Shown: piece by piece, positions 3,791 through 41,824 of the stretch
Position numbering within the stretch: position 1 is the first letter of the stretch
How the letters are laid out: every line of letters begins with the position of its first letter
DNA from: Rhizaria sp. SCN 62-66
Lineage: Eukaryota
Direction: 5' to 3'
DNA length: 46,498 nt
Assembly (NCBI GenBank): GCA_001724265.1
Contig: MEDY01000238.1
Location: forward strand, 1-46,498
Made by a program: the position numbers and the translations under genes
The notes under the pieces: model-generated
Databases searched by the model: none
What the model saw: the letters and a program-made list of their open reading frames with translations, nothing else
What the model was told of the DNA's origin: nothing

Positions 3791-6700
3791 TTACCGCCGC
3801 TGCTGCGCACGCGGATCGCCCTGTGGTCCAAACCCCGGTGGCTGTTGTTGCGCGGGTGGCGCATGCAGTTGACCCTGATGAAGTGGATATTGTTGTTGTT
3901 GATGCTGCTGCGGATACTGTTGGTACTGGCCTTGATTGTGGTTGGGACCTCCGTATCCTTGGCCCGAACCCGGCGGCCCATGCAGCGGTTGCGACTGTTG
4001 GTACTGATGATACTGCATCGTTGACGGCGCCTGGGGCGAGTGCGACTGCGCGCTTGGGTGCGGCTGGAACTGCAGAGGGCGAGACTGAGGCTGTAGATGT
4101 TGTGACTGTTGGTATGACACCAAATGCGCCTGAGGGTGATGTTGAGACTGGAGACGATACTGCTGTGCCTGCTGATACTGTTGGCCACTACTGTTGCTGT
4201 GAGGAACACTCGAACTACACCCACCCGGCGCCGAGTAACCCTGAGCACCGTATTGCTGCTGCTGTTGGTGGTAGCCTGCATGTTGATAACCCTGCTGTTG
4301 TCCTGCATGTTGTTGTTGGTGATGCTGTTGATGCTGCTGTGGAGGACGCTGCTCCTATCCCTGTTGCTGCGGCCATGGCTGATGTTGCGGTGGGTACTGT
4401 TGTTGTTGTGGTGAATACTGTTGCTGCTGCCGCAGCTGTTGCTGTTGCTGCGGATGCGGATGCTGCTGCTGCGGATGCTGCTGCTGCGGATGCGGATGTT
4501 GCTGCTGCTGATTAGGTGGTGGCTGTCCCTGTTGTTGCTGCGGTGGGAGTTGCGGGCGCTGCTGTTGCGGCTGCGGCGTCACATCAGCAGTGCCGTCACC
4601 GCTGTTACCTCCATTGCCCCCATCAGCATCAGCAGACGGCGGCGGTGGCGGCGGTGGTGAAGCCCGCCAGTGTAAAACAGTTGGCGCAACAATGGGCAGC
4701 GCAGAAGCCGGCGCCATTGGTAACGCTGCAACACTATCAACAGCAACAGACTGCGCAGAAGGCGCTGGTGCGGCTGTTGGAGCCGCAGACTGCGTTGTAG
4801 AAGTGACAGACGCAGCGGCAATGTCGCTAACAACTAAGGCAGGAGCGTTTACAGATGCTAAACCAACGGTCCCAGCATGGCTAGCCGCAGGGTTTGTCTG
4901 TTGTTGCTGCTGTTGCTGCTGTTGTTGCTGCTTCTCTTGTTGTTGCTTCTGTAGCGCCTTCTGCTGATCCTGCTGTTCCTGAATACGTTGTTGCACCTGC
5001 GCAATCTGCGCGCTCTGCTGCTGGCGCTGCGCCTGTTCCTGTTGCGCCTGCCAGTCGCGCTCGCTCTGCTTGCGGCGTCGCGCCTCTGCGAACGCAGCCT
5101 CAGTGCCAAGCGGCGCAACAACCGCGGCCACGTTCTCGATCGAGAGGCGCCGCGCGGTCGCCTGGGCAACGGCCTCGGCAGGCGACCAGCAGTGGCGGTA
5201 AAAGCCCCGCGCGACGGCGGAGGCGATGACGCCGCGCCACACGCTGTGCCCGTCGCGGGCGGCGCGCGCGCCGAGCAACTCGTGCTCCGGCGCCGGCTCC
5301 TGTGCGTCGCCAGTAGCTGCGTCGCTGTCATCAGTCATCTGGCTTGACTTGGCGGACACACTCTTTGCGTTGGCACTCGCTCTGTGAGTGCTCGTCGCGG
5401 TTGTGCCAGTGGTGAGCAGCGGCAACGCGAGCGCGGGAAGCGACGCGGCATCGACTGCGGGGCCCGCTGCTGTCGCGGCGCCGTGGCGACGGTGACGGCG
5501 CTGAGCCGCAGCCCCAGCCGCAGCCAATACGTCGTCTTCGTCAGCAGGGGTGACGTCACTGTCACCGGCGTCGTCGTCATCACTGTCATCTGCATTGACG
5601 CCATCAACCTCTTCTTCTTCGTCGTCATCAGCTGCGTCATCCTCATTGTCATCACCAGCGTGGCCCGCACCGCCTGCAGTGGCAGCCGCGTTAAAAAGCG
5701 TGAAAACGTCACATACAACAAAGCATCCCACACGCGCACGCGTCAACGCAACATTCACGCGCCGCCTGTCGGCCAAGAAACCAATGGGGAAAGTGACAGC
5801 GCGCTTGTGCGCCTGAGAGCCACTCTGACTGGATCCATGACTAAAAGCGCGACTATGAGCAGAGTTGTTGTCGTCTTCAGTCCCACCCTCGTTACCGTTA
5901 TGACTGTTAACGTCAACGACGTTTGTGCTTTTCGTGTCCGCGACAAGGGATACTTTGCCCCAGCCGGCCTTCGCATCCGCGGCAATAATACGGCCTGCAT
6001 TCGTGTTCCCGTCGTATTTGCCAGCGATTGATGACGGGGGACGGTACCAGGTCGACCCCAACAACAGTCGCAACAGCGATGGCGCGATGTTCCCAGGACC
6101 TGCGGCGATCGCAGCCATCAGCGCGGGCGCAAGTGCAAGCGCAGAGGCCAGTGGGAAGCACATCGGCGGCCGCACCAGCGTCGTCGAGTGTGCCAGCGCC
6201 GTCGCAAGGACCGCGGGCGGCAGGTGCGGAGGCGCGGCGGGCGGCGGCTGGCCCGAAAGCACGGACAACTGAGCAAGCGTGGCAGACGCAGCGGGCGCCA
6301 ACTCGCGCGCGGCCAGGTGTCGGGGCAGCGGACACGAGCGCACGCAGGAAAGGATCACGACGTCATTCTCCTGACCCTGCATACCGTCGACTGTGGACAC
6401 GTGTACGTCCAAAAAGCTGCCAGCAAAGGAGAAGAGCGCACCCTGCTGCACATAGCGTCCGGAACCACCGGCACCACCACTAGACTGTTGGTGATGCTGC
6501 TTCTGTGATTGTAGCTGTTGTTGCTGTTGCGCAAGGACAAGGTCAGGTACACCGTAGTGGAGATAAAAACAGTGCGGGCACCACGGGAACTCAACTGGCG
6601 CCGGTGCCGCAACGATTAGAGACGGCGGCGGCGGCGGCGGCGGAGCGCCGTGACTCTGAGAGTGACTGTGCGCGTGACTGTGAGGAGCAGGAGCAGATGT

Positions 6701-9700
6701 TGAAGGGAAAGCCGGAGGCGGGTGACATGGGCAGTCGCAAGTCTCGGGCTTCAGGTAAAATTGTCGGCGCAATCGATTGCGCTCCATGAGTGCAAACCGA
6801 TGTGCCTCGGTCAACAACTGCAGCAACACGCGGCGCTGATTCTGATAGAAAGTGACAATCGTGATCCTTGAGAGTCCGAGCGCAAAATAACGCCCCAGCG
6901 TATGCGCCAGCGCAAGCACGGCGCGCGCCTCGCGAAGGTTGCTCATCGACCGCAGAGACAGCGCGACAGCGGCCGCGGCGGATCGGCCACGTCCGCGCCC
7001 ACCGCCTGCAGCTGCAGCTGCGGCAGCGGCGGCGGCATCCTCGCTGTCATCCACACCGTCAAGTGTAAGATCTACTGCATCAGCGTCAACTTCAACGTCA
7101 GCGCCGCCGTTCTTGGAGAGAATCGCGGAGCGGAAGGCAGCGTCCACGGAATCACCGTCGCTCACGCGCATCTTGCTCGGGTCTAAGGGCGGATCCGAAT
7201 TTGCGTTATCGCTAACAGCAGCGGCAGCGCCTCGACCGTTCCAACCTCGAGCCGCAGCCTTCGCGGCGCGCTTAGCCGCCTTCTTATCCACGTCTGTCGC
7301 CACGTCCTCAGCGACGGAGTCGGAGACGGAACTTGAGGCACCGGCAGCAGCGGAAGCAAGCGCCGCGGGGAACTCGGCCCTGTCGCGCGGGTCCGTGAAA
7401 GGCACGTTGATGATTGTGAGGGGTGAGATATACCCGGTCAACAGCCGGCGTGACCGCGCCACATTGCCGGCAGCAGCGACGACTGCACTCGCGCCGCCTG
7501 CAATGTTAGCGCCGGCGTCTGCGCTGGCGGGCGCGGTAGGCGAAGCGAGTCCCGGTGCAAGGCCCAAACACGCCCCAATAGCACTGGTCGCCTGGCGCGC
7601 GTCGAGCGGCGCGATGAGGGTGCGGAACAAGTCCAGCGGCGGCAGGGTCGGGGCGGGCGCGCTCTGCGGCTGGGCCGGCTGATGGGCGTGAGGCGGAGGA
7701 CCGTGGGGGTGGTTGTTGCCGCTCTGATCCGGTTGTTGCTGTTGCTGTTGTTGCACAGATTGTTGTTGCGGTACGTGCGCACCGTGCTGAGCGTGCTGCG
7801 CCTTGTACTGTTGCTGTTGCTGCTGTCCTTGTTGAAGCAATGCTGACGTCGCGGGCGCGAACACGCGCAGCAACCCGCGCCAGATGTGCGGCGACGTTTG
7901 TGACACCTCACGGCACGCGTTCGGTACCGTCAACGCACCGCTCTGTCCGCGATTTGCACAGGCCTTAGACTGATGAACTGCGGCAAATGCAACTGCAGCG
8001 ACGGCGGCAACGCCTGTCATGCGGTCGGAAGCGTCAAGCGCAGCGCGCGCAGTGTCAGCGCCCGTTGTGACACGCCCAGCGTAAAAGGCACGCGAAGACA
8101 GCGACGCCACTACGGGGTCCATACGGTACTGCACAGTCAACATGCGACGCGGCGACAACTGGCGCGCCAGGAATAACATAAATGGAGGAGCTAACGACGA
8201 CGCCGGTGTGGTTGATGTCGCAGCAGCGCCAGGAGAGAGGAAACGGCGCGCAGCCAGCGCAAGGCGGCGTGGCGCAAAGGAAGTCGACAGTTGCGTCGAT
8301 ACTGACAGTGGGCACAGCGCGCAGTGCTCCTTCGCATCACGAACAACAAGTGCAGAGCTGAATTTACTGCTGGCGTTGTTGCCAGTGGCATCCTTCATAT
8401 TTTTGATATCGTCACTGCTCTTGTCGTCCGCTAAGGTTGCTGTGGCAACGGTGCGCTCAAGCGCGGACAACGCAGCATCCTGCAGCGCAACTGCGCGGGA
8501 CAGTGCAGCACCTGTTGCGAGCCCCGCAGCCGCAGCAGTTGACGCTGCCGAGAGCGCGCGCTGCAGACGCTCAAACAGAGACGTCTCAAACACTTGTGGC
8601 AGGCCGGTGGGCAGCAGCGAGGACGACGCGGGCAAGAACGAAGGCCAATAAGCAGGCAGCAGCGAGCGCGTAAAACTACTCGTGCTGCCCAAGCTGGATG
8701 TAGTACTGATGCTAGTGCTGACGCCGCTAACTGTTGCGCCAAGCGCTGCAGCAGTAGCCGCAGCGGCGGACGCAGCGGCAACAGCGGCAGCCGAAGCAGA
8801 TGCAGTCGCCGACGACTGCTTAACATCATCATCAGCGTCGACATCAATCGCGATCACAGATTCAGAGTCAGAATCGGAGTTAGAGTCCGAGTCCGAACTG
8901 GAAGAGTCAATCGTAATGATATTGATGTCGTTGTCGTCGTCATCGTTGTCACTGCTGCTGCTAACACTGCTGTCGCCGTCGCTGTCACTGTCACCAACAC
9001 TGCTGGTGTCGCTGCTACTGCTGCTACTGCTGCTGCAACTACTGCTGCTACCACTGCTGATGGTGAACGCCACGACGCCGCTGCCGTTCTCGCTGCGCGC
9101 GCGCGCCGCCTGTTCACGCACACGCTCGCGACGCTTGGCAGCAGCCGTCTCAGCTTCAGCGCGGCGCCGGCGCCTGCTTTCTTCCACTTCCGCAGCCTCT
9201 GCAGCCTCTGCGGCAACCGCGACTTCCGCGGCACGGGCCGCCGCAGCAGCAACAGCCGTAGCGGCTTCGATGCCGCGCACCACGATGGCGATCGCGGCCT
9301 CGATAGCGCCTTCGCCGCCCGACCGCGTCACGTGCACTGAGCTGCTACTGACTGTGCCTACAGTGGATACATCCCTATCCTTGTCCTTGACCTTATCACG
9401 GCTCTTGGACTCGTGACGCACACCTGCTGCGGCGGCAGCCGCAGTAACCGCAGCTGCAGCGCCTTCTGCGGCAGGATCATCCTGCAAGAATACCGTGGCG
9501 GGGAGCTGTTTGTGGTCGCCAACAAGCACGCAGTGCTGTGCAGCGCGCGCGAGCGCGACGAGGACCGTGAGCTCGGAGCACTGGCCAGCCTCATCAATGA
9601 TCACGTCGTCGAATACAAGAGGCGCGGGCCGCAGGCCGGCGTTCATTCTCAGGCCACCACCGCTGCCTGCGGCGGCGCCCGGTGCAGCGGCAACGGCGCC

Positions 9701-12700
9701 GATCGCGGGCGCGGGACGCGGGGAGAAGAGCGAAGGGAAACGGACCGAGACTGGAGCGCCGAATGCGTTGTATAGGTCACGCCCGCTAACAGCTGACTTT
9801 GCCGCAGACCCAGAAACAACACGGAAGGGATTCGCAGGGGCAAGCGCCAGCTCGGCGTCAACTTCGGCGCCGGCCGCAGCGAACTCTTTAGGCTCATAAT
9901 CGTCATCGGCGTCGACGTTGCACTCAATGTCGAAGGGCGAGGCCCAGTCTGACGACGGCCATTCATCGACTGAGAAGCCGTTCCACGAGTCGAACCCTGC
10001 GTCGGCCTGCGCGTCTGGACCACCGCTACCGCCGGGAGCGCCACCAGACCTGCTGCCAGCAGCTCCACCAGCAGCAGCGGCAGCGGCGGCGGCAGCGGCA
10101 GCGGGCGCGGCGGGCGCAGCGGCCCCAAGCGCGACAGCAGCCGAAGCAGCGCCAAGATGCGATGCCGCAGTGTTTGTGCGCGGCAGCTCGTCCGCACCAG
10201 AGCACGTGCAGAACACGATCGACGCCTCTTCCAGGATCGCGTCCTTGAGCACGCGCACACCGGGCGAATGCACAATCTGCGGGTTGCGCGAGAGCAGACT
10301 CTGTGCGTGCAAAGCTGCGTGCTGCTGTTGAGCATTCTGCTGCTGCGCCCGCTGAAGCTGCGCTGACTGCTGCGAATTCTGCCGTCCGCTATTGTTGTTG
10401 TACGCGTGAGTGACAGTGACGGGAAGTCCCAGCGACCGACACGCGCGGGGGTTGCCGCGCTCCACAGCGGCGTGCATTTCAAGCACAAGCGAGCACCGAC
10501 GCACTTCCTCGCGCAACGCATCGCGCCGCTCGGAGATGTCGACGAGCTTACCAACGACAACGGAAGCGGGCCGCGAGCGCAGTGTAAACGCCGGTGAAGC
10601 GAGCACTTCGGCAGCAGAGGCGACTGTGCCGCCCGCAAAGAGCGCGAGCGCTGACGGCGGCAGCGCAGACGCGGCTGTAACAGGCGGGATAATCGAAGAA
10701 GAGCTGCCAGACTCAACAGCGCCACGCGCGAGCGCGAGCTGCATGTAGGGTGGCAACGCACGGAGGAAAGAAATCGCGTCAGCAATGCACGTGACACGAC
10801 GGCCGAGCCCAGCGGGGGACCAGCGCAAATGCGGCGCAAGTGCAAAGAAGGCTTTGATGTGCTCAGAAGCGGTGCGCGTGATTTCGTTGTTGATGTTGCG
10901 CAGTTCGCGGTCAAACTCGTCCAGCGTGCGGCGCGCTTCGTCGACCGTCTGCCGCAGCTGCGCGGGCGTCTTGCGCAGGTACTCAGACACGCGAGTCACC
11001 ATCGCGATCTGCTCGCGCACAGCACCCTTGCGCAGCATACCCTGATTGTTGCCCAGACGCACAATCGACGGTGAGTAGGTCCTCAGTGCGCCGTCCAGCA
11101 ACAAGTCCACAGTCAGACGCTGCACAACTTCGTCGACGGCCGCGTTTGACGGCGCACACACCAGGATGCGCGGTTTGCGTCCAGCGGCGGGCGCCCAGGC
11201 CGAGCGCGCAGGCGGCGTTGGCGCGCGAGAAAGGTCGGCAGACTCGCGCCAGCGCTGCAGCGCGCCAGTGGAGACGGGCGCCTCGCTGAGCTCAAGTCCC
11301 AGTGCCGCGTAAAGCGTGAGCGCGTCGTTGTCGCTCACGTCGAGTCCAGCACCAAGCGCGCCGGGCGCTAGTCCAGACGCTGCAGCTGCGGCAGCTTCAG
11401 CGCGCGCCGCAGACGCAGTCGCGAGTGACCACTCGGGCGCAGCCGAAGTGTTCACGCGGCGCTGGACCCCAGCGCTGTTGTTGAGCTGGTTCGCAATCGC
11501 GGAAAGCGCGGAAGCCGTGTCAGAGCCAACGCCCGCAACGGTGCGCGCACGTGCGCTGGCGGCAGCTGCGGCTGAACTAGCCGTGGCGGCGGCAGCAGCA
11601 GAAGCCGCAGCGGACGCTGACGCGCGCGCGTTCTCAGCAAGCTTGACAAAGAAAGAACGAAGACGGCGCATCAGCACGCGCTGGCAAACGGCGCCAACGC
11701 GGACTTCGTATCCTGCAAGCGCACGGCCGAGGTGCAACGTGTTGAGCAGCGAGATAACGGTTTTGGTCTTGCCCGTGCCGGGCGGGCCTTGCAGCAACGT
11801 TACACCGCGCGAGAAGGACGACAGCGCCTCAAGTGCAGACGCACGCGCTCCCGGCGGCAGCAGCACGCGCGGCGGCGGCGCCAGTGCGGGTGGTAGCGAG
11901 CCCGGCGCTGGCAAAAGCGAGGACGCGGGACCGGGCACCTGCGTGCCAACAGCCGCGTGCAGCCTGGACAAGTATCCCTCAACACCGCTGTCCTTCTGCT
12001 CGTTCGACGACGATATGAATGATAATGGTGACGACTCAGACGATGACGACACAGCACTGCCACTGACAGCGCCAGATTGCGCGCTGTTAGCGTCAGCAAG
12101 CGGCCATGAGGGTGCTGAGCGGACGCGTTCAATTGTGTGCAGCACAGCGTCGATGGCGCGCAGCTGCGACGCGTTCAGGCGCTCTGCGAAGCGGAACTGC
12201 AGCGGCGCAGGCAGCCCCGCCCACAGCAACGACGGGGCGGGCAGCACGGACGCGGGCAGCGGCGTCGGCCGCAGCTGCACTGGAGGCTCCGCCGTCGCAC
12301 TCTGTGTCGTGGCTGCGGCGGCCGCAGCAGTTGCAACGGCTGGAACCCGGGCCGGAACAGGAGGGCGGTCACCGCAAAGACAAGCAAGAGTGCGTGAACT
12401 GGCGCTCTTGCTTCCTTGTTTCTTGCGAGCGCTCGCGTCAGCGGCGTTGTCTTTAGTCTCGTCGTCGTTCATATGAACATTAGTGTTCTTGGTGGTGGAA
12501 ATTACATCATCGTCGGTCATGGCAGCGCCGACATTACTGTTGATCTTGGTGTCGGTGTTCTCCTCAACCAGCGTCACGCGCGCTCCGCTACTGCTCCTGC
12601 CGCTGTCATTGGAAGTAAGAGTGTTCACAGTTGCGGGAGGAAGGCCACAGAGCGCACGCAGCACTGCTTGCGCGCCCGCAAGCGCAGCCACAGCACCAGC

Positions 12701-15700
12701 CGGATCCGCCGTCAACCGCGCCCATACGTTGTTTCCGGTGCCGCCGGAAACTGTGAGTGCTGTTGCAGTTGAGGCGGGCGCAGTTGAGAGGAGCGTACGC
12801 ACACGCTCAATGGCAACGCGCTCACGCACTGCAAGCCGCCGGACAAGCGCACGGTTCGTGACGTCAAGCAGCGCCTGGATCGCGCCGCGCCCCGCAGCCA
12901 ATCCGCCAACAAGTTTAGCACCTGATGCAACAGCAGGTGTGAGCGCCGAAGCGGGTGCCGATGCAACTGAAAGCGGGAGAAAAGCAGAGGCAGGGAGACA
13001 TCCGCCCGCAGGTTCCGAGAGCGTGCGGAAGAGCGGGAACGCGGGCATGGCAAGCACGGCGGCAAACTCGCGGCGCGCGGGGATCAGTGACGTCAGCGGC
13101 CACACGCGCAGCCGCAGCCGCTGCCACGCGGGCGCGGACGTAACTGACGCGTAGCACAATCCTGAAACTGCGGAAGTGACAAGATCCGACGTCACATTAG
13201 GGCTCGTGCGCAGCGACAGCGCGTGTCGTGGCGCCGCCTCGCCGCTTGCGGCACTGCTCGACGACTGGGCGAGCGACGCCGCACCAGTCAGCGGCCCAAG
13301 CTGGCCTGCGCCAAGCGTGGTCAGCGTACTGCCTTCAACGGTGTCTGTGTTGAGGACGTCGAAACCGGCGATGAAAGCCTCCTTCGCCAAGCCAGTGCGC
13401 ACGAGTGCGTGACCCATGTTCTGTCCCCTACCCTGAGGCGGTGTTGCCGCCGGCGTCGTCGCAGTTTCAGTCGGGTCGTCGCTCCAGAGCCCCCAGCGGC
13501 TGCGCGCGGCGTGGTACAGTGTCGCCAGCAGATCCTCCGCCGTGCGCGGCGTCGTCGACACGCACTCGGGCGGCGTCGCGCGCGCGGCGGCCACGGCGGC
13601 AGCCGTAACTGTGAGCTCAAGGAGAACGGTGGAGCCAGCGCAGTAAGAAAACGCGGGCACAAAGGTCTCCCCAGTGCGCGTGGGGTGCGGTACAACGGCG
13701 CGCGACGGCAAACTGCTGTTGATCGCTGGGCCGCGAGTCTGTCGCGCGCGCGAAGGGGTCGCCAACACGTGAACAGCGGGCACGCGCGCGCCGTCGTCGC
13801 CGCCCAGCGCCACAGCCGCCAGCACGTCGGCCGAAGGCCGGCACAGAACAGAAGCCGTCGCAGTAAGGTCCGCTGTCATGCTGCTCAGCGCCGCAATTGC
13901 GGCATTGCCTCCATCTGAGGTCCTCTGATTGCCACGCTGGTTGGGATTATTGCTATTATTGCCGTTGTTGCTCTTGTCGGGTGCGTTGGGGCGCGCTTCG
14001 CGCGACTGCCGGTGCGGCGCAGTTGGCGCAGCGTAAGCCGTACGCTCCGGCGCAATCATGAACACCGTAGAGTCATCGGCCTGCGCCACACGCTGCGCCA
14101 GCTCAGCCTTGTAGTCGCCGCCGTTGGAACGCTGCTGCTGCGCGAGCGTCAGAGCGAGGGACGGCGCGATGAGCGATGGCGTGAGTGTGACCAAATGACG
14201 CTCTGACCCCGTGTTAGTGGGCATATGTGGGTCAGAGCCCGCAGGCAGCATGTTCTGCGCCAGAGTCTCCGCCGCGGCCTCGCACTCGCCACGGAGCCCG
14301 ACCAGTCCCAGGGCGGGCACGTTTGAGGTATCAATGGCGAGGCACGAGGAAACCGAGGCTGGCGCGTGGTCCCAATAGTCGAAGCGCACGGAGATCTGGT
14401 ACGTGCGCGGCGCACGCGCAATCGCGTCAGTGCTGCTGTTGGTGCGTGCGTTTGCGTTGGCAAGAACGCCGCCGCCCGGCTGCGCCTGCCGGATCATAAA
14501 GCGGTGCGGGCCGCCTTCATCATCCCACGCAATGACGTCGTCGTCGTTGTTCTCCTCAACATCATCGTCATCATCATCGTCGATATCGTAGACAATCGCC
14601 ATGTCGTCATCGTCGTCAAGCGCGACGTAGTTGTCATTGTCATGCATCGAACGGCCGCGTGCCGCACCCGCAACAGCACCGCCACGCGCGCCAGGCGCAC
14701 CAACGGGCTTTTTGCCCTTGTTCGCATCGGCGGCAGCAGCGTTGTTGTTGGTCGTCTTCGCAGAAAGGATGGCGGCGGGGTCAACGGTGAGCACGCCCAG
14801 CGGGTCGTGGATGCTGAACACGTGCGCATAACGACCGGGCGCGTACCACTCGCTGCCAGCCGCGGCGTCAGTGTCGCCCACAGCGGCCGCCGCTGGGGGA
14901 GCGCCGAAAGAGCCGTTGACCAGCGCTGCCGCGGCAGAGGGCGCGAGGCCACCGAGCAGCGCCAGAACTGCCGGGTCTGTCTCAGACGCGTACTGAGTAC
15001 CCTGAGGCGCCGGACGCGCGCTATTGCTGTTGGTCGGAATCGAGCTGTACGAAAAACTCGAACCTGAGTTAGGGGTCGGCTTTGTGGGCTCGAGCTTCAT
15101 TGTAGCACCATCGACATTATTGTTGTTGTTACCTTGCTGCATCTGTTGCTTAAATCCCTGCTGCAGCTGTTGCGAAACGGCGCTCATGTTGGCAATAGCG
15201 CCAGCGCTCGCAGTGCCCATGTGCGGTGTCGTGGCAGCAAAGACCTTAGCCTCGTTGAGCTGCGAGTAGAGCCAGCGCCCCTGCGGCGTGACCGCAGACC
15301 GGAGCTCGCGCCGCGCGAGGCGCACTGCGCGCGCCGACGCCGCGTGCACGACGCGCAGCGCGCGGAAGCACGACACGCGGAAGTGCGCGTACTGCCGGCC
15401 CTGGCTCAGCCTCTCAATGTCGCTCGCGTCCACTGCAACAGGGGCGGTCTCAGTCGAGCCCGACACTGCGCCTCCAGACACAGCGTCCGCAACAGCACCT
15501 GAAACATTAGCAATGCCAGAAAATGACAGCGAGCTTGACAGCGCATTAAGCTGCGACTGCGGCGAAAAAAGACTGCTGCCAACAGGTTGTTGGTGCTCCT
15601 GCTGTTGCTGCACGGCAACGTGCTGCGCGACACGCATCGGGACGGCGGCCGGGTCGAACGCGATTTCGTACACAGCAGACGCGGCAGCCACGGTCATCGC

Positions 15701-18700
15701 GCTGCGCAGTGGCGGCAACGGAGCTGCGCTCGCTCCCTGCTCCGTGGCAGCCGCGGCAGCGTTGGCAGCGGCAGCCGCGGCGGAGGCGGTAAGGAACGGG
15801 CGCGCAGGCTGCACGGCAGAGGGCACGAGCGCAGTGACAGTGCGCATGCTGCTGATGGTGAGCCTGTGCGCGACGAGGTTCACGACGCCTGAGGCGCGCA
15901 TGTTCGCGCGCGACGCAGTGGCGCACGTCTCGCCGCGCGGGTGCGCCGTCACGTGCGCCCACAGCCAGTCGAACACGGTCGCGGCGTCGGCGCGCGCGCT
16001 CGCTGTCAGCGCGACCGCGTCGCCGGTGCCGCTGGAGCCCGCGGTGGCGGTCCCGGTGCCCATCATGGGGGAGGCAGCGGGGCGGCGCGCGCGGGCCGCG
16101 GCTGAGCTACTCGTGCCGGTGCTGCCACCGGCGCTGCCCGTGGCAGTGCCGCCGGTGCACGCGCCCGAGGCAGTAAGTGCGGAGACAGCGGGTGTGCCCA
16201 TGACGACAGCGGTGGCGAGCATGCGCACCAGAGGACGCAGCACCGCGAACAGAACGGTGTTCTTCGCCTGCTGCCGCGCCGAGGCGGATGAATCTTCTGC
16301 CGCCGACGCAGCTGCCGCGGGGCCAAACGCAGCGGCGGCAGCGGAACCAAACGCTCCACCTTCAGCAAAACCAAAAACATAGGAAGGATTTGCAGATGCA
16401 GCGGTGCATTGCTTAGCTATCTCAGCAGTGACGAGCGTGTCTGCAAGCTCAGCAACGGCCGAAAGCGCAACGAGTGCAAACGCGAGCCTCTGCGCGCGCG
16501 TGGCGACTGCTGCGGCCGCGCCCAGAGCTGCAAAGGGCATAACAAAGGTTGCTTGTCGCACGAAGCCCAGCTTGGCTGCCCCGTCGTCGGACTTGGCGCG
16601 CGCGTAAAACCACCAGTGGTGGCGCGCAGCAATGGCGGCCGCCGCCAGCACGGGGCTCGCGCCGTTCGCGGGGCTCGAGCTCGGCAGCCGTTTGTTCGTG
16701 ACCGAGTTCCACGGGTCGTTGGAGAACCAACGCAGAGTCTTGATGAGCGGGGGCGCAGCCAGAGTCGCTGCGTGGTGCACTGTGCAGTACAGCATCGCGC
16801 GCGCGAGCGACATCACGAGCCAGTTCGCAGGGGACGCCGCCGCAGCCGTGCCGAGGGACAACGCACGCAAATTCATCACACCGTCGGCAGCGCCGCCAGC
16901 GTTGTAATTTTGGTTATAATTCATCTGTGCACCATTTTTCCCCTTCTTATCACGTTTCGCATTGTGGGCATTGTTCGCAGCGTTCGTGTTGCCAGCGCCG
17001 TGATTGTTGACCGTGAACGTAGCTCCCAACCCGAGGGCATTGAGACACCAAGTGACCGCGCCCACGGCGCTCACCGGCCGCCCGGTGCCTGTCTTGGACG
17101 CGGGCCCCAACGCCTGGTGCACGGACTCGTACTCGCTCAGCAGCGACGCGTGGATGTCGAGGAAGAACGGCGGCAGGAAGTAGCTCAGGTACTCGAGCGG
17201 GGACGAGAACGAGTGCAGGCGCCGCACACGCGGCCGCAGCAGCGCCTCAAGCGCGCTCTGGCACGTCGCCGGGGACGAAAACGACAGCAGCAGCTCGCGC
17301 TGCGAGTCGCGCTGCGCCGCAGCAGCAGCCGCAGCCGCAGACTCGGCGCTCTCCGGCACGCTCTCGGCCGCGCTCTTGTTCGGAGCCATGGGCACAGCTC
17401 CAGAGCCAGAGCCAGAGCCAAAAGCGGAAGCAGAGGCAGAGGTGGCGGCAGTGCCGGGAGCCGGCGGCCGGGAGCGGGGCTTCGCGGCCGCAACGGCGCC
17501 GTGCGCTGCCGCGGCAGTAAGCAGCGCGACCACGCTCGCGGCCGCGGGCGGCAGCGGCGGCGGCGGCGGCAGCGCGCTGAGCCCGCCGCGGCCGCTCGCG
17601 CGGAGAAGCTCGAGCAGGAACGGGTCCGTGCGGCCCGCAGCACCGCCCGCGGCGCCACTGGCAGCACCCGCGCCCGCGCCCGCGCTGCCAGCGATGCTGG
17701 TGCTGGCACTGTTGTTGTTGGCGCTCATGGGCAGACGCAGCAGCCCGTCTTTGGAGACGAGCAGCGGCGTGAGCCCGCGCGCGCCGACGCCTCCCATGCC
17801 CTTCTCCTCGCCGGCTCTGCCTCTGCCCGCGCGCGCGCCGCCGCCCACAGCCGCGCCGCAGGCCGCTGCGGCCGCACCGGCGGAGGAGACCGCGACTGAG
17901 GCGGAGGCGGAGGCGGCGGTGAGGCCGAGGTGCACGCGCTGCATGAGCGCGGTGACTCCCTCGTACCACTCGCGCCACTTGGCGCCCGCCGCGGCGGACG
18001 CGGCGGCAGCGCGCGCGGCGGCCGCGGAGCCTGGCGCGGCGGAGACGTCGAAGAAGAACGGCTCGAAGACGAGCGGCGGCAGTAGGTGCTGCGGCGCGAA
18101 GCGGCCCTCGAGCGGCGCGGCAAGCAGCGACCAGCTGCTGACGCGGGCGCGAAAGGCCGCGCGCGCGCGCCGCGTGTGCAGCGCGGGCGCGTTGTTGCCG
18201 CCCTGCAGGACGCCATCGCCGCCGCCCCTGGCGCCGCCCTTACCGTCGGCGTCGGCGTCAACGTGCGTGATGGATGTGTAGGACAGCGGCACGGGGGCGA
18301 GGCCCGGGGACGTAAGCGTCGCGGCCAGGCGCGCAGAGCCCGAGAAGGCGGCCGCCACGGCCTGTGCGTGCGAGCGCACGGGCGGCGCGTAGGACGTCGC
18401 GGCCACCGCGGCGGCAGTCAGCATAGCCGCGGCGGCGATGGAAGGGACGCGGGACTTGGCCGGACGCGCCGCCTGGGCCTGCGGCTGAGGTTGAGAGGGG
18501 GCTTTCGCAGCGGCAGACGGGGCGTCGACAACCTCGAGTCCAGGGGACGTAGAGACCTGCGGGCGCGCCTGCGCCTGCGACTGCGCTAGCGTCTTCTGCT
18601 GTGCTTGTAGCTGTTGCTGTTGCTGTTGCAGTTGTTGTTGTTGTAGTTGCTGCTGCGCGCCGGCGGGAGAGCGCGAGCGCGAGCGCTTTACGCCCCGACC

Positions 18701-18891
18701 CACGGCGACCGACACAGCGATAGGGTCCGCGAAGGACGCCCCCGCAGACAACGGGGCACTGGCACCAGCGCCTGCAGAAGACGCAGACGCAAGAGCAGGA
18801 GCCACAGGAGGCACAGCTCCAGACGCGGTCGCAGCTGGGACAGAAGGACGCTTGGGCGCTGCAGCAGCACTACTCCCACCAGACGCGTTCC

Positions 18892-18922
<31 letters not shown>

Positions 18923-20233
18923 ACTGCTACTCGTCGGGGCGAGCGCGCTCACCGCGAGCGCGGGCACGGACGCGGGCGCGCCGGCGGCGGGCGCGGGGGG
19001 GCCGAAGAGCGTGTGCGCGAGCGACGGCGTCGACGGCGGCAGCGGCCGCCACTGCGACCCCGCGCTCGCGCTCGCGCTCGCGCTGGAGGTGCCACTGACG
19101 CTAGAGCTGGCGGCGGAGCCCGCACTCTGACTCTGGCTGTGGGTCTGACTGGAGCTGTGATGGCTCTGGCTCTGAGGGTGCACTGGCTGCGCCTGTATCG
19201 CCGTCGGAACAGTCGCATTCGATGCCGCTGCAGTCGCAGTCGCCGTCGTGGCCGAGTCGGCGGCTGCCGTCCCAGCAGGCGCAGGGGCCGGCGCGGGCGC
19301 AGCCACCGCGCCCGCGGCCGCAGTGGGGGGCGCGGCGGAAGGAGAGGCCGAGGCGGTGGCCGCGCTGATCGTGGCGGCCACCTGGCGCGCGCGCTGATAC
19401 AATGACATCAGCGACTGCGGCTGCTGAGACTGAGACTGTGAGCGCGACAGAGACTATTGCTGCTGCGGCTGTGGAGCGGCAGCGACTGCGAGCGCTTGCG
19501 CCGTCGCTGGCGCTGCTGCTGCTGCAACGGCAATGTTCGGGTTTGCAGCAGCAACAGCAGCGGCGGTCGCGGGCAACGAGCCGTGGACGATCTCAAGCTG
19601 ATACTCCTCCTCGTCCTCGTCGTCGCCGCTGCTGGTGCAGCTGCTGTCGCCGTCGTCGTCGAGCTCGCTGTCGGCCCCGCAGTCCAGGTCGCGGTCTTCG
19701 TCCAGCGCCGCACGGCCATGCAAGTGACCGTGGGCAGCGGAGTGACCGTGGGCAGCGGGGTTCGCGCTCGCGGTGCGGCTGCGCTTCGCCTGCGGCTGCA
19801 TCTGCGCCTGCAACGGAGACTGCGACTGCTGCGGAAACTGGGACTGCAGCTGGGGAAACGCAGCCGCTACTGGCGCTGATACTGCTGATGATGATGATGA
19901 TGACGCTGGAGCTGATGCTGTCGATAGCACGGGCGCGGGCGCAGGCGCGGGCGCTGCGGCGGCGGCGGCGGCAGCGGCAGCGGCGGCCTCACGCGCGGCG
20001 GCTGCGGCAGCTGCGGCAGCAACGGCCTTTGCAGCGGCGGCGGCCTCCGCAGCTGCTGCAGCCTCCGCCGCGGCGGCAGCGGCGGCAGCCTCGGCGGCGG
20101 CGGCAGCGGCGGCAGCGGCGGAGGCAGCAGCGGAGAGGCCCTGGTACACCTTGCCGGGGACGTCCTCGAGCGGCGGCGGCACGTCGTCGCCCTGGTCCAG
20201 CTCGGCCTCAAACAGGGCCAGCGGGTCAGACAT
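3791..20233 (-). CDS. SEN1: Giant Sen1/senataxin-like (Upf1-family SF1B) RNA/DNA helicase, ~5,480 aa, single exon, two in-frame TAG codons (19454-19456, 4355-4357)
   Basis: Ordered motifs: LLQGPPGTGKT, ILVCAPSNAAVDE, IIDEAGQ, VLVGDHKQLPATV, SLFERL, LTVQYRM, STVDGMQGQENDVVILSCVRS, GFLADRRRVNVALTRAR. ORFs 19454..20254, 4355..19408 and 3791..4123 share one frame and are separated only by single TAGs. ATG at 20233 (MSDPLALFE), TAA at 3791-3793, and minus-strand AATAAA at 3687-3692. Orthology to Sen1 rather than another Upf1-like subfamily is an inference. Confidence 0.85.
4355..4357 (-). other. In-frame TAG, probable sense codon (Sen1-like, C-terminal region)
   Basis: Context WPQQQG*EQRPPQQHQQHHQQQ. 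The frame stays open for 187 more codons to TAA. Confidence 0.8.
19454..19456 (-). other. In-frame TAG, probable sense codon (Sen1-like, N-terminal region)
   Basis: Context PQPQQQ*SLSRSQSQSQQPQSLMSLYQ. Confidence 0.75.
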
Positions 20234-25437: not shown

Positions 25438-25510
25438 AGTCCGCGGTGGGGATCGAACCCACAATCTCCTGCTTCGTAGGCAGACACCTTAACCATTGGG
25501 CTACGTAGAC
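25438..25510 (-). tRNA. tRNA-Arg(ACG), isodecoder A (identical to 3402-3474, inverted)
   Basis: Exact reverse complement of 3402-3474. The upstream 26 nt are also 23/26 identical. Confidence 0.95.
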
Positions 25511-28066: not shown

Positions 28067-29291
28067 ATGCAACACAGCTACACTCTAGGTTTGATCTGCC
28101 ATGTACCATCCCTATTCTAGACGCTCTACTCAAGGCTCTGTTTCACACGCATCATTCAATCGCACTCGTTTTAGCCACCACTACACGTTTTCTCTCTTTT
28201 TAAGTGTGTGAGTGTGAAGTGTGTGAGCGGAGTTCTCTTGAACTTGAAATGATATGCAAATGTGCTCTCTTCGCGACACTACTTGCCCGTTGGTTTTCCT
28301 GTTTCTGTTTTCTTTCTCTCTTCTCTCTACTCTCTTGTTCTCAATCTCTATACTGAGATCACAGCTTCACTCTTCTCGTCTCTCTTTTCTCTCTCCTCAA
28401 GTCCTCTCAGCGCCACCCACACACAGCGTTTACAACACGTTTGATACCCCCCCACGCACGCACTCGCGACGCACCCGGCTCTTCCAGACGACTGTCTCGC
28501 GCCCGCGGTCCCGCTCCTCCCCCACTCGGCACAACGCATTGCAGAAGCACAGCAGCACCCCGCTGCCGCCGCTGCTGCTACGTCGTCGCAGTGGGCGGAG
28601 CGCGGCCGCTCGCGGAATGTCGTTCCTGCCGCCGTGTGCGCGCGCGTGCGGTGTGCGTGCGCTGAGAACCCCTGAGCAGAGCAGAGACCAGACCGAGCGA
28701 GTGATCCCTAGCAGTGCGAGCGGAAGTGGCGAGCAAAGTGAAGGAGCGGAGCAGGGACCGACAGCGCCGCCCCGCTGAGCGAAATCGGGACTGCGCTGGC
28801 TCCATGACTGGCTTTGTATTAATAATATATTAAAAACTAATAAACGAACAGTTTATTGAACACATTACTCCAACAATGTCTCTTTTGCATGTCGTTTATG
28901 ATGATCTTAATGTGATTTTTTTTTATTTGCTGCGTATTAAGGTGATTTTCACTTCAAATGCGTTGACGCTGTAAGATAATACTTGTAATTATATTATATG
29001 TGCAATATAGTTATGTTTTATAACATTTCATATCAATCATGTTGATATATAGACAATACACAGTAAACCTATGTTGTGGCCCGAACAAAGCCATAAATAA
29101 AAATGACTTACAGTGAGTATTGCAAGTCAAAGTTTACTACAACTATATAATGACACAAGATTAAAAAATAACGCACATATCGTTTCCAACCCATCTCTTG
29201 ATGATTTAGCACGATTTCAGCTCTGAGGCCATCTCGACCTTGTTTCGACTGTGATACCCGTGTGATACCCATACTCGTACGTACTAGCTGC

Positions 29292-30472
29292 TCAGTACTT
29301 GAGCCAGGGCTCCGCGGGCCAGGTGAGGTCCGAGTCCATCTCGACCTCGATGGGCGTCTCGAAGATGGCGACCCACTCGGCCGGGCTGGGCATGTCGGCG
29401 CAGGCGCCGAACGCGGCCAGCTTGTCGGCGGCGGGCACGTGGTTAAGCAGTTGCCGCGCCTGCGACCGCTCCAAGTACTCGGCCTGCTTGTCCGCCGGCT
29501 GCGCCGCGCTCTCGCGGCCCAGCTCGAGCAGGTGGCGGTACGTGTCGAAGGCGATCTTGGTCATGTTAACCGAGGCGGCGGCGGCGAAGTCCTCCGAGGT
29601 CGCTTTGACCGCGCGCACGGCGAAGACGGGGAACTCGCGCGGCACTTCCTCCGAGAAGGCGCACACCTTGCAGTTGGCCAGGAATGCCGCCGACGCCGCC
29701 GCCGCGCTCAGCGCCGCCGCGGACACGCCCGCTGCAGCCGCGCCGGCCGGTGTGGCGGCGGCGGGGACGGAAGCGGTGAGGTTGGCGAGCGAGAGGATGA
29801 GGGCGCGCAACACGTCGGCGGGGGCCTCGAGTACGCACGTGATGGCGGATCCGTTGACGACGAGCAACAGGCCCGTCACTGCCTCGGGCGTCTCCTGCAG
29901 GCTCGCAGCCGCGGCGGCGGGCGAGGCGGACGCGGCGCCAGCGTCGGGGGAGCCCGCGGTCGGCGAGGCAGCGCCGTTGTTGTTGCCGTTGTGGCCAGAG
30001 TTGTGAACGTTGTTGGTGTTGTTGTTGGTGTTGTTGTTGTGGGAGGGGGCGGCGACTTGGTGCGCGGCGACAAAGTCGGTAAACCACTGGGAAATCTCGC
30101 TCTCGCGGTGCTTGTTGCCGGCCTCGAATGTACCGGTAATCCTATCCAAAAACGTCAGACACAAACAGACAGTACAGTAGAAGATTGTTCAAAGTGTAAG
30201 AAAAGACAACAGATAAAACACAAGATCGGGGGGAAAGAGCAATAAAATAAGAGATTTAATAACGAAAAAGCGTGGTAAAAGGGAGCAGTGCAGCAGAAAC
30301 AGGAAGTATACAGTCAGTACGCCAGTGTTGAGCTGACAAGGAAGAGAGGAACATACATGACACGGGCGGTGCGGCGGTGGCGCTCTTCCTCGTACTCCTG
30401 GGTCACGACATCGAGTAGGGAGACGCGACGGTCCTCCTCGAAGTCGTTTAGAGACGCGGCGTGAGCACTCAT
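29292..30472 (-). CDS. TEX47: TEX47 (C7orf62)-like protein; exons 30472-30357 and 30141-29292
   Basis: MSAHAASLNDFEEDRRVSLLDVV... spliced at GTATGT...GATAG with the frame preserved. EAVTGLLLVV and C-terminal SPAEWVAIFETPIEVEMDSDLTWPA resemble TEX47 EAVTGLLLIY and [25 protein letters not shown] as recalled. Ends in TGA. Confidence 0.8.
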
Positions 30473-30954
30473 TGCGCGGACAGAAGAGCAAAGAGCTAAC
30501 GGGTGGACTGAGAGTAGGCGTGAAGGGAAGAAGGTGGGAGAGGAAGCAGGGGGCTGCAAGATGGGAAGACAGAATTAGGCCAGTGAGCGTGGTAGAAAAC
30601 GACTACAACAGTTTAATTAAAAAATAGTGACAATGCGTCAGGTTTATTTCAAGAAATCATAGTTTCAGAAGTGCTGACGGTATTTTGAGCGCTGTGGAGA
30701 TCGGCCCAGTTGCGTCTGTTTCCGTTTCCGCCGTTGCCGGTCGGCAGCCGCGAAAAAAGTTTGAACGCGGCTAGAAAAAAACGGCTAGGGACCAGCTGCG
30801 CTCTCGATCTATAGACCGTGCACAAGGAAATAAGAAGTGAATTCGATTCTTCTAAGCTGTTTTGAGTATTTAATCTAATTTATGACTTGACGCCTTGCTG
30901 AATATACCCTCCAATTCGCAACCACCTTGTCGCCTGGCCAGAACCCTTTCGCGA

Positions 30955-32736
30955 ATGAGCGCTGACTCCGAGGCCCCCGACGGCACCCTGCGTCTCACCG
31001 AGCGCTATCTCAAGAAGCTGTGCCGTGAGATGGACCTCTACTCCACTCCTTAGCTCAACGATAAGCTCTACCTCCATTATAAGGGTCCGTCCCCACATCC
31101 TTCATTGCTCGTTACTCCGCTCTGTCGTCGTTGATGCACTCCTCTTCTGTCGCACACTTTCTCACTCTACTTCTCCCAACCTGTACATAATTGCGCTCTT
31201 TCTTTTTATCTCGCGCACAGGCTTTAAGAAGATCGAGGCCCTAGAGCCCTACACGGGCCTCAAGGTGCTGTACCTCGAGGGCAATGGACTCGACACGATC
31301 GAAGGCCTCGCCGCCTGCACCGAGCTTAAGTGTCTCTACCTCCAGGAGAACCTCATCGAAAACGTCCGTTACGCCCGAAAATCTTTATATAACTTCAAAT
31401 ATAGCTTCATGACGTATATTTATATCTTCCCTCGCGACTTTGCCATGCTTTGCCTTGATTGTGTCTCGTATCATTTCTTTTCTTTCCTCTCCTGCTTTTG
31501 CTCACGTTCACTGATACTTTGCATTCTTTGGTGTGCTTCCTTTTTCTCATCTTTGTCACATAACTGCTGCTACAGATCACCGGTCTTGAGACGCTGACCG
31601 TGCTCGATTCCCTCAACCTCAGCAACAACTTGCTCCGCTCCCTCCCTCCCCCGAATCCTCAAAGTGCTGACGCCGCTACCGCTGCTGCTGCTGTTGCGTC
31701 GCCGCTGCCGCTGTCACTAACGTCCCTCATCCTGCAGCGCAACCGCCTGTCTTCGCTGGACTCGCTGTCGATTCTGCCGACCCTGCCGCAGCTGAGCGTG
31801 CTCGATCTGTCACAGAACAACATCTCCGCCTCCCCGGAAGCTCTGCTGGCCTTCCTGGCCTCGCTGCCCGCGCTCAAGGTGCTCTACCTCAAGGGCAACC
31901 CCGCCGTCGAGGGCGTCGAGCATTACCGCAAGCGCGTTGTTGCGGCGATCCCCTCCCTGAGCTACCTCGACGACCGACCCGTGTTCCCAGATGAGCGTCG
32001 TCTGGCCGCGGCCTGGGCGCGCGGCGGCGGCGATGCGGAGCAGGCGGAGCGAGCCGCCATCAAGGCCGAGGAGGCTGCGGCGGCGCGGAAGCAGAGCGAG
32101 GGCTTTGAGGCCATGGTTCGCGCGGCGCGGCGCGAGAAGGGGCTGCCCGAGGAGGAGGACGAGCTGCTGCAGCGGCTGCGCGGTGACGGCGAGGCGGAGG
32201 AGAAGGCTTGGGAAGAGCAGAACAAGACGGCCGCTGCGCAGTCCAAGGCTAAGGCCAAGGCTGAGAAGAAGGCCAAGAAGGCTGCGGGCGTCACGGGCGG
32301 CGGCGGCGGGGTGCTCATCGAGGAAGTGACAGACTCTGAGTCCGACGATGATAACGACGACGACGATGCTGCTGACGCCGCTGTTAACGCTGCCGATGCG
32401 GCTGAGATGCCGGAGCTGGAGGCCGTCGACCCCGAGACTCTGGCGAAGGCCGCCGCTTCCGCCGCGACTGCTACTGCTACTGCGAAGACTGAGACTGGCC
32501 GCAAGCAAGGAGGTCTGCTTGACTTTGGCTCCAGCTCTAGCTCTAGCTCTTCGAGCTCTAGCGCTGCGTCGAAGGCGAACAGTGGCTCCAAGAGCAAGAT
32601 GATCGAGATTGTCGACGATGACGAGGAGGAGGACAGCTCGAGTAACACCAACTCTAAGAATGGCAGTAAGAAGATGATTGAGATCGTCGAGGACGACGAC
32701 GACCAGCACGCGCGCGACGTCGAACTGCTCGATTGA
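30955..32736 (+). CDS. DNAAF1: Dynein axonemal assembly factor 1 (LRRC50/ODA7); exons 30955-31084, 31221-31363, 31576-32736; in-frame TAG at 31051-31053
   Basis: LRLTERYLKKLCREMDLYSTP*LNDKLYLHYKG|FKKIEALEPYTGLKVLYLEGNG, then LRRs and LRR cap YLKGNP..YRKRVVAAIPSLSYLDDRPVFPDERRLAAAWARGG. Splice phases are consistent. Ends in TGA. Confidence 0.93.
31051..31053 (+). other. In-frame TAG, probable sense codon (DNAAF1)
   Basis: Lies inside the conserved LY.TP.LND.LYLH.KG motif. Confidence 0.85.
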
Positions 32737-33302
32737 TTACAGTGCCACATGGAGTATAACGCACGAACTGGGAATAGTAACAGATGATATGCTTAATTGG
32801 CAACGACCACGACGTGAGTGCGCTTTGTTTCAGGCTTTGTGAGAGCCGGGAAAGGGCCATTATATGCTTAAGTGCACTTAAATAAATACGAAAAATAGAT
32901 TAAAAACATCTGGGTCTATCGAGATAATGATGTTATAACTGTATTTGGTGTTGTTTATGCTGAATTATCGTCAATTCATGTGTTTGTGGTCACAGCGTGA
33001 CTGTGGCGCGAGTGCAGGTCAGCGACGTATCGCTTGTTGGCTCCATTTAAACAAGCGTCAAATGCGATGAGGACTCGTTGTTTTCACAATTTGCGATGAA
33101 ATATGATAATATATAGAGTATATTATACTATACTGTTTTAATCTTGCTTAAATCGCGCATTCAGAATACTATACCTTACATTTTGAATACTGAACTGATC
33201 TACTTTGCCGTCACACGAATCTCCACGCTCTCACCCGCCGTCCTGCTCTCCCCTTATTTCCCTGTGCGCCATATTCACACCGCCCGCGTGCCGCAGCGCG
33301 TT

Positions 33303-36300: not shown

Positions 36301-36847
36301 CCGCCGCCGCCGCCGCGGACAGCATCAGCAAGGCGCGCGCGGGGGGCAATGACGACGATGACGACGAGGCGGTGTTCAAGCCGGCGCGCTCGACCCGGGG
36401 CTTCTACGATGACGACGACGACGACAGCGACGCAGGTGGCAACAAAAACAAGTCGAAGCAGAGTGCCGCGAAGCAGAGCGCGAGCGTGTCGCCGCCGGGA
36501 CTCAAGACCGCGAGCTACGCCCCCGCGCCTGTACCGGTGACCGTGAGCCGCTCCCCCGCCCAGCCCGCCGCTGCCGCCAACACTGGCGCTAAGAAGGCGA
36601 CGAGTGGGTTTTACAGTGATAGTGATAGCGGTGGCGACGGACTGGTCGATCAGCGCTATGCACAGGGCAAGGGCAAGTCGAGCAAGAGCAAGAGCAAGGC
36701 TAAGAAGGGCGGGTTTTACGACTCGGACAGCGAGGCCAGCTCGAGCTCCAGCGACAGTGACAGTGACAGCGACGTCGAAGGGAACGATGAGGACGACGAT
36801 GACGACTTTCTCGAAGGCATGGCGTCACATACGGCCGCCAAGAAGGC

Positions 36848-36892
<45 letters not shown>

Positions 36893-38325: not shown

Positions 38326-38356
<31 letters not shown>

Positions 38357-38702: not shown

Positions 38703-38738
<36 letters not shown>

Positions 38739-40147: not shown

Positions 40148-41824
40148 ATGCTGCGCCGGTCGACACGGCTGACGCTGCGCAGCGCTGCCGAGGCCGAGGA
40201 GATTCTGAGTCCCGCCAAGCCCGCCGCTGCGCCGGAGACCAAGGCGGATGACTCGTACGTGCTCGACTATGACATGCCTCCGCAGGTGTCTCTGGGCGGC
40301 TACTCGCGTCACGTCACTCCGGGCGCCCAGCGCATCCGCAGCAGCTTCGCGCCTTCCCTCGCGTCGCTCGCTTCTCTCGCCACCGTGCCCACTGCGTCCG
40401 TCGCGCCGCACACACCCGCTCCGCCGACCACGCTCTCCACATCGTTCTCCGACTCGCTGGACTCGCCGCCGCCGCCCGTGGCCTCGCTGCGTACGCCGCG
40501 CTTCGCGCGCCCGATGAACCCCGTGACCAGTCTCTCGGGCCTCAACACGCCCGGCGCCGGCGCGGCCGGCCACGCCGGGCTTGGCGCGATTGCGAGTACG
40601 CCCTTCGCGGCGCGGGCCGGCGCGGGCGCGTTCCCCGCCACGCCCAGCGGCTTCTTCGGCCACAATAGCCACCACAACAACAATAACTACAACGCCAACG
40701 CCACTGCCGCTGCTGCTGGTGCTGGTGCTGGTGCTGGTGCTGGTGCTGGTGCTGGCGCTGGCGCTGGCGCTGCGGGTGCGAACACGCTGGCGACACCGCG
40801 GCCGTTTCCGGTGCACCCCGGGCACACGCCCGCGCCCGCGGTGGCCCCCACCTCGGCCTCTGCGTCTGCTATATCCAGCAGCAGTAGCTCCAGCGCTGCC
40901 CACTCCGCCTTCAGCCCTGCACCTCACACCGCCGCTGCCGCTGCTGCGTCGCCCGCGCACTCGCTCGTCCCGGCGGCCCCGATGACCGCTGTGTTTGTGG
41001 CGGCGTCGGCGGCGGCGCTGGTGTCGGCCCCCGACGCCCGCGCGACCGCGTCGCTGCTGCGGCACTGCGTGACCGTCTTCGGCTTCCCGCCCCACCGCGC
41101 CGCGCTCGTGCTCCCTGCGCTGCTGCGCGCCGCCGCCGCGGCCTCCGCGGGCGGCAGCGCGGGCGGCGCGGGCGCGCGCAGGGACCCCGCGGCTCCGGAC
41201 GCGGCCGTGGCCGTGCTGGCCCTCGGCTCGGCCTCCGCGGCCGAGGCCGTGCTGTCGCGCAACGGTGCGCTCGTCGGCGGGTACATGATCGGCGTCAAGC
41301 CCACGGAGCGGCACGAGGTGTCGGCCGCGTTTCTGCTTTCGCTCGCCGAGGAGGCCGCCGCCCAGGCGAACAATAGTCACGCCGCGGCTTATGTTAAGAG
41401 CAGCGACGTCCTGGGCTACGACGGCGATGACGACAACAACGGGGAGGACTACGCGGCGAAGCAGCTGCGTGCGGGCCACGACGGCAGCGATGACAGCAGC
41501 GACAGTGAGCAGCAGTTGGAGCAAGACCAGGCCGCTGCGGTCGCGGCGGCGGAGGCGGCCGCGGAGGCCGAGGCCGAGGAGGAGGCCGGGGACATCTTTG
41601 ATCTTGACGCGCACATGCAGCGCCAGGCCCGCGTTGCCGCCGCGCGCCGCTCGCGCTCGCGCTCCGCCGCGCCGGGCAAGAGCAACAGCAACTGCAGCGA
41701 GTCTGCATAGTCCGAGTCTGTGTTTGCGGGACGGGCTGGGGTGCAGCGGGCGCCGTGGGAGGACACTGTGCCGCGTCGTGTATCAGTCTGTGTGCGCATT
41801 TGCGAGTACTTTCGCGGATATTGA
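40148..41824 (+). CDS. NUP35: Nucleoporin Nup35/Nup53 (MPPN-type RRM); in-frame TAG at 41708-41710
   Basis: RRM ends CVTVFGFPP...AEAVLSRNGALVGGYMIGVKP (cf. WVTVFGFP...ALSKDG..IMIGVKPC). Reading through the TAG gives C-terminal SVCVRICEYFRGY-TGA, resembling the Nup35 terminal amphipathic helix SLVSKAMEYMFGW. Confidence 0.82.
41708..41710 (+). other. In-frame TAG, probable sense codon (Nup35)
   Basis: The frame stays open for 37 more codons to a Nup35-like C-terminus and TGA. Confidence 0.8.

Follow-up and report, generated by a model that had tools for sequence, protein, structure and literature searches.

An in-frame TAG inside a conserved DNAAF1 motif suggests that UAG is translated in a wastewater rhizarian

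Does a stop codon in the middle of a conserved protein motif end the gene, or is it read as an amino acid? The question is raised by a DNAAF1/ODA7-like gene on contig MEDY01000238.1 of Rhizaria sp. SCN 62-66 (assembly GCA_001724265.1), the full 46,498 nucleotides of which were analysed here and are called the window. A sequence-only reading had noticed a TAG at codon 33, inside the N-terminal motif of the family, and had seen in it evidence for a change of the genetic code. Our analysis bears out the structural part of that reading and makes the code change the best explanation; the base for the latter is three firm TAGs and an ambiguous one in a single 46-kb window, with the DNAAF1 TAG as the only one in a conserved column.

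The gene starts with the ATG at 30955 and is composed of three exons (Table 1), which together encode 477 codons plus a stop, 478 in all. Exon 1 is translated as MSADSEAPDGTLRLTERYLKKLCREMDLYSTP-TAG-LNDKLYLHYK plus one G. The joint between exons 1 and 2 (GT donor at 31085, CAG acceptor ending at 31220) is in phase, as had been proposed, and gives (G)FKKIEALEPYTGL; the sequence read on from this joint is GFKKIEALEPYTGLKVLYLEGNG... and the conserved motif is present on both sides of the TAG. Besides the TAG at codon 33, the spliced model has no stop but its terminal TGA (codon 478), and upstream of the ATG in-frame stops are found at 30883 and farther 5'. A MAFFT alignment with 16 orthologues shows the window protein to be collinear over both exon junctions and places exactly one column at the TAG, so that the claim of a single residue holds. 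An intron that would use a GTGAG in exon 1 as donor and the AG of the TAG itself as acceptor was considered and rejected; it would be 29 bases long, break the frame and remove conserved residues.

Table 1. Features of the window that bear on the reading of TAG.
Feature	Position	Strand	Description
DNAAF1-like exon 1	30955..31084	+	43 codons plus 1 base, in-frame TAG included
In-frame TAG, codon 33	31051..31053	+	One column of the conserved N-terminal motif; context CCT TAG CTC
Intron 1	31085..31220	+	136 nt, GTCCGT...CAG, GC 0.50
DNAAF1-like exon 2	31221..31363	+	
Intron 2	31364..31575	+	212 nt, GTCCGT...CAG, GC 0.40
DNAAF1-like exon 3	31576..32736	+	LRRs, LRRcap, acidic tail; ..ELLD, then TGA 32734-32736
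SF1 helicase gene (AAA_11/AAA_12)	3791..20233	-	5,480 codons, ATG 20233 to TAA 3791-3793, two in-frame TAGs
Helicase first TAG	19454..19456	-	Codon 309 of the open frame (codon 260 from the ATG); Gln-rich tract; GC-rich, coding-like flanks
Helicase second TAG	4355..4357	-	Codon 5342 of the open frame; Gln-rich tract; 187 more codons to the TAA
Gene with weak Nup35-type RRM	40148..41824	+	End at TAG 41708-41710 or at TGA 41822-41824, 37 codons on
Fourth TAG	41708..41710	+	Sense or true stop, ambiguous
TGA gene ends			DNAAF1, TEX47-like gene, ORF 33693-34787, P0308
TAA gene ends			Helicase, KH gene

The family assignment is supported along the whole protein. In the last exon Pfam LRR_4 (E=4.6e-10) and LRR_8 (E=7.6e-9) score above their cut-offs, and LRR_9 falls just under its own (27.9 against 30.5 bits). 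The stretch LDDRPVF is invariant across an alignment of 15 orthologues and is matched in the window protein by YLDDRPVF at position 221, in the LRRcap. The C-terminus, ..ELLD, resembles those of most of 22 orthologues (15 end in LD and 3 in MD), and the terminal TGA is on this ground taken as a genuine stop. Among 27 database relatives, the names that describe a function are mainly 'Dynein assembly factor 1, axonemal' (Chlorella vulgaris via UniRef; Petromyzon marinus), with 'Leucine-rich repeat prot...' (Trypanosoma cruzi marinkellei via UniRef) as the other; these names are the sources' own, the remaining named relatives carry 'hypothetical protein' or transcript or record labels, and most of the 27 are unnamed. 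The closest relative (P0003) shares 66% identity and is without the N-terminus. No related loci for P0001 or alignment A1 were returned by the metagenome, genome and viral contig collections searched, and an exact 40-base search of genome contigs gave no match. With its N-terminal motif, LRRs and LRRcap, acidic tail ending in LD and named relatives, the gene resembles DNAAF1/LRRC50/ODA7. It differs from the orthologues in the in-frame TAG and in a segment rich in Ala and Pro that is inserted among the LRRs behind ..NNLLRSL and is missing from the 16 aligned sequences. Judged by sequence, it is a DNAAF1/ODA7 orthologue with a predicted role in the cytoplasmic pre-assembly of axonemal dynein arms.

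Some features of the surroundings may be added. Both introns open with the hexamer GTCCGT (31085-31090; 31364-31369) and close with CAG. GC content is 0.40-0.50 in introns and spacers versus 0.60-0.70 in exons, so that exon limits are marked by GC in this genome. A three-codon upstream ORF (ATG ACT TGA, 30882-30890, plus strand) lies 73 bases 5' of the DNAAF1 start codon. A TEX47-like gene (Pfam PF24787, E=5.5e-8; 29295-30188, minus strand) is arranged head-to-head with DNAAF1, at a distance of some 770 bases from the DNAAF1 start codon. This pair may be co-regulated and related to the cilium, the latter link being a predicted one.

The residue distribution at the TAG column was examined on a broad sample. 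A profile of 15 orthologues (A2) was compared with a set of 1.84 billion representatives; its 150 best matches together with the 27 earlier relatives gave 172 proteins; 19 of more than 1,300 residues, multi-stretch LRR giants, were left out, and 153 were examined. The flanking motif (..LY.TP-x-LND.LYLH.KGF..) is present in 139 of these DNAAF1-like proteins, directly before the LRRs, and the 14 others are mostly N-terminally truncated fragments. Given this prevalence, the match of the window on both flanks of the TAG is not a chance one. At the column itself the 139 orthologues have Glu (58), Tyr (31), Ser (20), His (11), Ala (9), Arg (5), Cys (3) and Asp (2); Gln, Leu, Trp and Lys occur in none of them. 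Mean BLOSUM62 scores against the column are 1.52 for Glu, 0.73 for His, 0.52 for Gln, 0.31 for Tyr, -0.18 for Lys, -1.80 for Trp and -2.22 for Leu. The residues that the sequence-only reading had named for this place (A/E/H/S) all occur, Tyr had been missed, and its preference for Gln over Trp agrees with the mean scores, although neither of the two is found and Glu is the commonest residue. The column thus accepts polar and aromatic residues, speaks against Leu and Trp and is mildly in favour of Glu; the DNAAF1 gene by itself gives no pointer to Gln.

Two further in-frame TAGs lie in a giant single-exon gene for an UPF1/SEN1-like helicase, whose motifs lie within very long low-complexity stretches rich in Ala, Ser and Gln. 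Apart from these two TAGs its frame is open for 5,529 codons. Codon-position GC is 0.81/0.63/0.72 over the 259 codons from the ATG to the first TAG; at the second TAG it is 0.77/0.51/0.61 just before and 0.79/0.42/0.53 over the 187 codons after, and beyond the TAA it drops to 0.39/0.39/0.44. The coding signal runs across both TAGs. Each has five Gln among its 12 neighbours, a level reached by only 5.6% of positions. This setting fits a Gln codon drifting from CAG and a plain CAG-to-TAG nonsense mutation equally well.

The fourth TAG lies in the gene at 40148. GC stays high there until about the TGA at 41822-41824, and the tail after the TAG closes in aromatic residues (..EYFRGY); in the part of PMC3474928 that concerns Xenopus Nup53, that protein is described as requiring its extreme, hydrophobic C-terminus. 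The Nup35 assignment itself is too weak, and the gene was rejected as a second conserved case: Pfam RRM_Nup35 reaches E=0.0035 and 17.7 bits, under its cut-off of 24, an Atlas score of 0.77 is a lead only, a PDB sequence search gave weak RRM matches for the part before the TAG and none for the tail, and a homologue search with this gene returned no relatives. Two other apparent cases were also set aside. The TAG at 42438-42440, 70 bases 5' of the nicastrin ATG, is placed in the 5' UTR, and minus-strand ORFs at 35.3-38.9 kb, one of them with a TAG end, are shadows of a plus-strand gene. The latter region (35316-38903, plus strand) holds a 1,195-codon acidic low-complexity ORF with a recurring GGFYDDDDDD-type unit and KEKK runs, which has no Pfam match.

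Over the 7,142 confidently coding codons of the window, in-frame TAG is found three times (about 0.4 per 1,000), and in-frame TAA or TGA not once. None of the six placeable gene ends is a TAG; four are TGA and two are TAA, placed by homology for DNAAF1 and by ORF end plus GC drop for the other five. A log-odds codon-usage scan for coding-flanked stops was too weak to be of use (coding mean 0.31 bits per codon, minimum -0.34, with an antisense TGA flagged), and an exact look-up of the guessed helicase, KH and 40148 ORFs in a protein collection found none of them present. The seven tRNA genes of the window (3401-3475; 22020-25511), which lie in AT-rich spacers, are Arg-ACG (four), Lys-CTT (two) and Ala-AGC; none has a CUA anticodon, and the window contains no eRF1 gene. 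Several of the tRNA genes form pairs with equal scores, on one strand or on opposite ones, a pattern suggestive of local duplication.

Our data are best explained if TAG is decoded as an amino acid throughout the organism, with TAA and TGA kept as stops, a reading that we consider probable on the sequence evidence. Several lines point to it: the DNAAF1 gene is otherwise undamaged, with the motif on both sides, canonical GT..AG introns and no further stop; past its TAG no in-frame ATG is met until codon 271, which lies behind the LRRs and the LRRcap, so that reinitiation cannot rescue the protein; the helicase TAGs are followed by continuing coding composition, and no TAG is found among the six gene ends; TAA and TGA are absent from the coding codons; the ORF that ends at the DNAAF1 TAG recurs on a separate Logan contig (see below); and the organism groups with Guttulinopsis in an H+-PPase tree (see below), while a sainouroid relative reads UAG as sense according to PMC5304391. 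The DNAAF1-like gene would then be intact and yield all 477 residues of its protein, with an ordinary amino acid in place 33. By analogy with other UAG-only code changes, decoding would involve a tRNA with anticodon CUA, alongside an eRF1 that has lost efficient recognition of UAG. The rarity of TAG fits a young reassignment or a strong GC bias.

The main alternative is that the TAGs are real nonsense mutations, as in a young pseudogene or a null allele in the population, or else sequencing or assembly errors; at 31051 this may be an error or a minority allele. The DNAAF1 copy would then give a 32-residue peptide ahead of a well-preserved gene, as the sequence-only reading had already remarked. 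Several observations suit this explanation. A stop created at random by a single-base change in these GC-rich genes would be TAG in 63-65% of cases, and three TAGs out of three stops are therefore not significant alone; the two helicase TAGs stand in Gln tracts rich in CAG, where CAG-to-TAG mutations would fall; and the CUA anticodon is missing among the tRNA genes of the window. That the gene at 40148 may truly end in TAG also weighs against a code change. The nonsense explanation nevertheless demands three nulls in two of about ten genes, without a frameshift or a TAA or TGA in all the coding codons, and three nulls in two neighbouring genes are unlikely for a free-living protist. It also leaves the perfect preservation of the rest of DNAAF1 and the coding composition through both TAGs of the long helicase frame without a reason. 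Moreover, a Logan contig of 4,555 bases, which belongs to another assembly, has yielded a recorded ORF identical to the 32 residues from ATG 30955 to the TAG. The TAG at codon 33 accordingly stands in a second assembly, although this contig and the window may derive from shared reads. We regard nonsense or error as an unlikely explanation.

Alternatively, TAG could be a stop in general and be read through at these sites, either by programmed or leaky decoding with a near-cognate tRNA or under an ambiguous, context-dependent code. TAG is indeed rare in the coding sequence and possibly terminates the gene at 40148, and ambiguous stop/sense codes exist in Condylostoma and karyorelict ciliates, as described in the relevant parts of bioRxiv 10.1101/2022.04.12.488043 and PMC4967479. 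The four contexts (CCT TAG CTC, CAA TAG TCT, GGA TAG GAG, GCA TAG TCC) have no common motif, however, and no stimulatory context is shared 3' of the four TAGs (CTC AAC, TCT CTG, GAG CAG, TCC GAG). With a stop as early as codon 33 (of 477) or 260 (of 5,480), nothing short of near-complete readthrough would give a useful protein, and the window has no demonstrable TAG gene end. Readthrough is improbable to much the same degree as nonsense or error. In some filamentous fungi, stage-specific genes are reported to undergo A-to-I editing that turns a stop UAG into UGG. Editing of the mRNA to UGG (Trp) in this way, or from U to C to give CAG, would reopen the frame and leave the genetic code as it is. 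Direct support for it from the window is nil; Trp is absent from the 139 orthologues at the DNAAF1 column and scores -1.80 there, and the nearest relatives of the organism are not fungal. Editing is by far the least probable of these explanations.

If TAG is translated, which residue does it specify? The helicase contexts, together with the fact that Gln is the commonest assignment in the literature as surveyed in the pertinent part of PMC11687900, make us lean to Gln, which is somewhat likelier than all other residues together. The DNAAF1 column favours Glu, which is nevertheless a rather unlikely choice, and Tyr is a poor candidate. Leu and Trp are disfavoured by the column.

What organism is concerned? 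The stretch 26400-36399 is present in 12 runs from seven studies, all of them bioreactor, wastewater or sludge metagenomes, RNA-type libraries included. The first gene of the window (4-816, minus strand) is the N-terminal part of a H+-translocating pyrophosphatase. The full H+-PPase (P0033), of 741 residues, is on record as a single uninterrupted ORF without in-frame TAG. Its unnamed relatives on record share 74%, 69% and 58% identity, the best named relative is that of Guttulinopsis vulgaris (55%), and the other named matches are mostly from Rhizaria (Lapot, Leptophrys, foraminifera, chlorarachniophytes). An ML tree of 39 rows puts the window protein into a 17-row clade (SH-aLRT 100) with Guttulinopsis as its sole named member; being a midpoint-rooted tree of one gene from a quick search, it gives a lead and not a placement. 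As a lead, then, the organism may be close to Guttulinopsis (Rhizaria, Sainouroidea).

Put together, these results would describe an uncultured, GC-rich, flagellated cercozoan of wastewater reactors near Sainouroidea in which UAG was reassigned independently of the sainouroid exLh, to another residue (Gln, possibly Glu or Tyr), and is at an early stage. We offer this fuller scenario tentatively, as one that may well fail in one of its parts. A full-text literature search found no report of a UAG-only reassignment for a wastewater protist or for a rhizarian besides exLh. If the scenario is true, two different meanings of UAG would exist within one small rhizarian group, and if UAA were kept as a stop and UAG meant Glu or Tyr, the code table would be one not yet described. 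Codes that split UAG from UAA are informative on the means by which eRF1 and suppressor tRNAs can tell these codons apart. One more case would be an additional independent event and would show a reassignment at low usage, possibly at an early stage; its source would be a protist that is abundant in wastewater and turns up in the metagenomes of several studies. In practical terms, standard-code gene calling will truncate or split the genes of this organism, and its DNAAF1 is already on record as a 32-residue 'protein'.

Nuclear codes in which UAG and UAA differ are rare and, in the passages of PMC5304391 and PMC11687900 on such codes, are described only from exLh, Iotanema and some phyllopharyngean ciliates. 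UAG is Gln with UAA kept as a stop in Iotanema spirale (Fornicata) and in the ciliates Hartmannula sinica and Trochilia petrani (same sources), and the account of phyllopharyngeans in PMC11687900 has the UAG-only change leading to Leu and, twice, to Gln. If TAG is Gln here, the code table would be identical to that of Iotanema, Hartmannula and Trochilia as far as those passages describe it, and the helicase and the KH gene likewise end in TAA. These are unrelated lineages, however, and the window is GC-rich (exons 60-70% GC) with introns of 136-212 nt. The peritrich ciliates and Blastocrithidia, for which the corresponding parts of PMC11687900 and PMC12153298 give UAR as Glu, recall the window in that Glu is the commonest residue at its DNAAF1 column (58/139). 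They differ in that UAA is reassigned too, whereas in the window two genes appear to end in TAA and in-frame TAA is not seen.

The closest parallel is exLh, a member of Sainouroidea and sister of Guttulinopsis. In the sections of Panek et al. 2017 (PMC5304391) on its code, UAG is Leu, with 384 in-frame UAGs in 71 genes and with UAA (56) and UGA (15) as terminators, and the code of Guttulinopsis seemed standard. As proposed for the window, UAG alone is sense while UAA and UGA are stops, and exLh is a probable rhizarian relative of the organism studied here. By contrast, UAG is abundant in exLh and stands at conserved Leu positions, as those sections report, whereas the window has three TAGs in 7,142 codons, two of them in Gln tracts, and a DNAAF1 column at which none of 139 orthologues has Leu.
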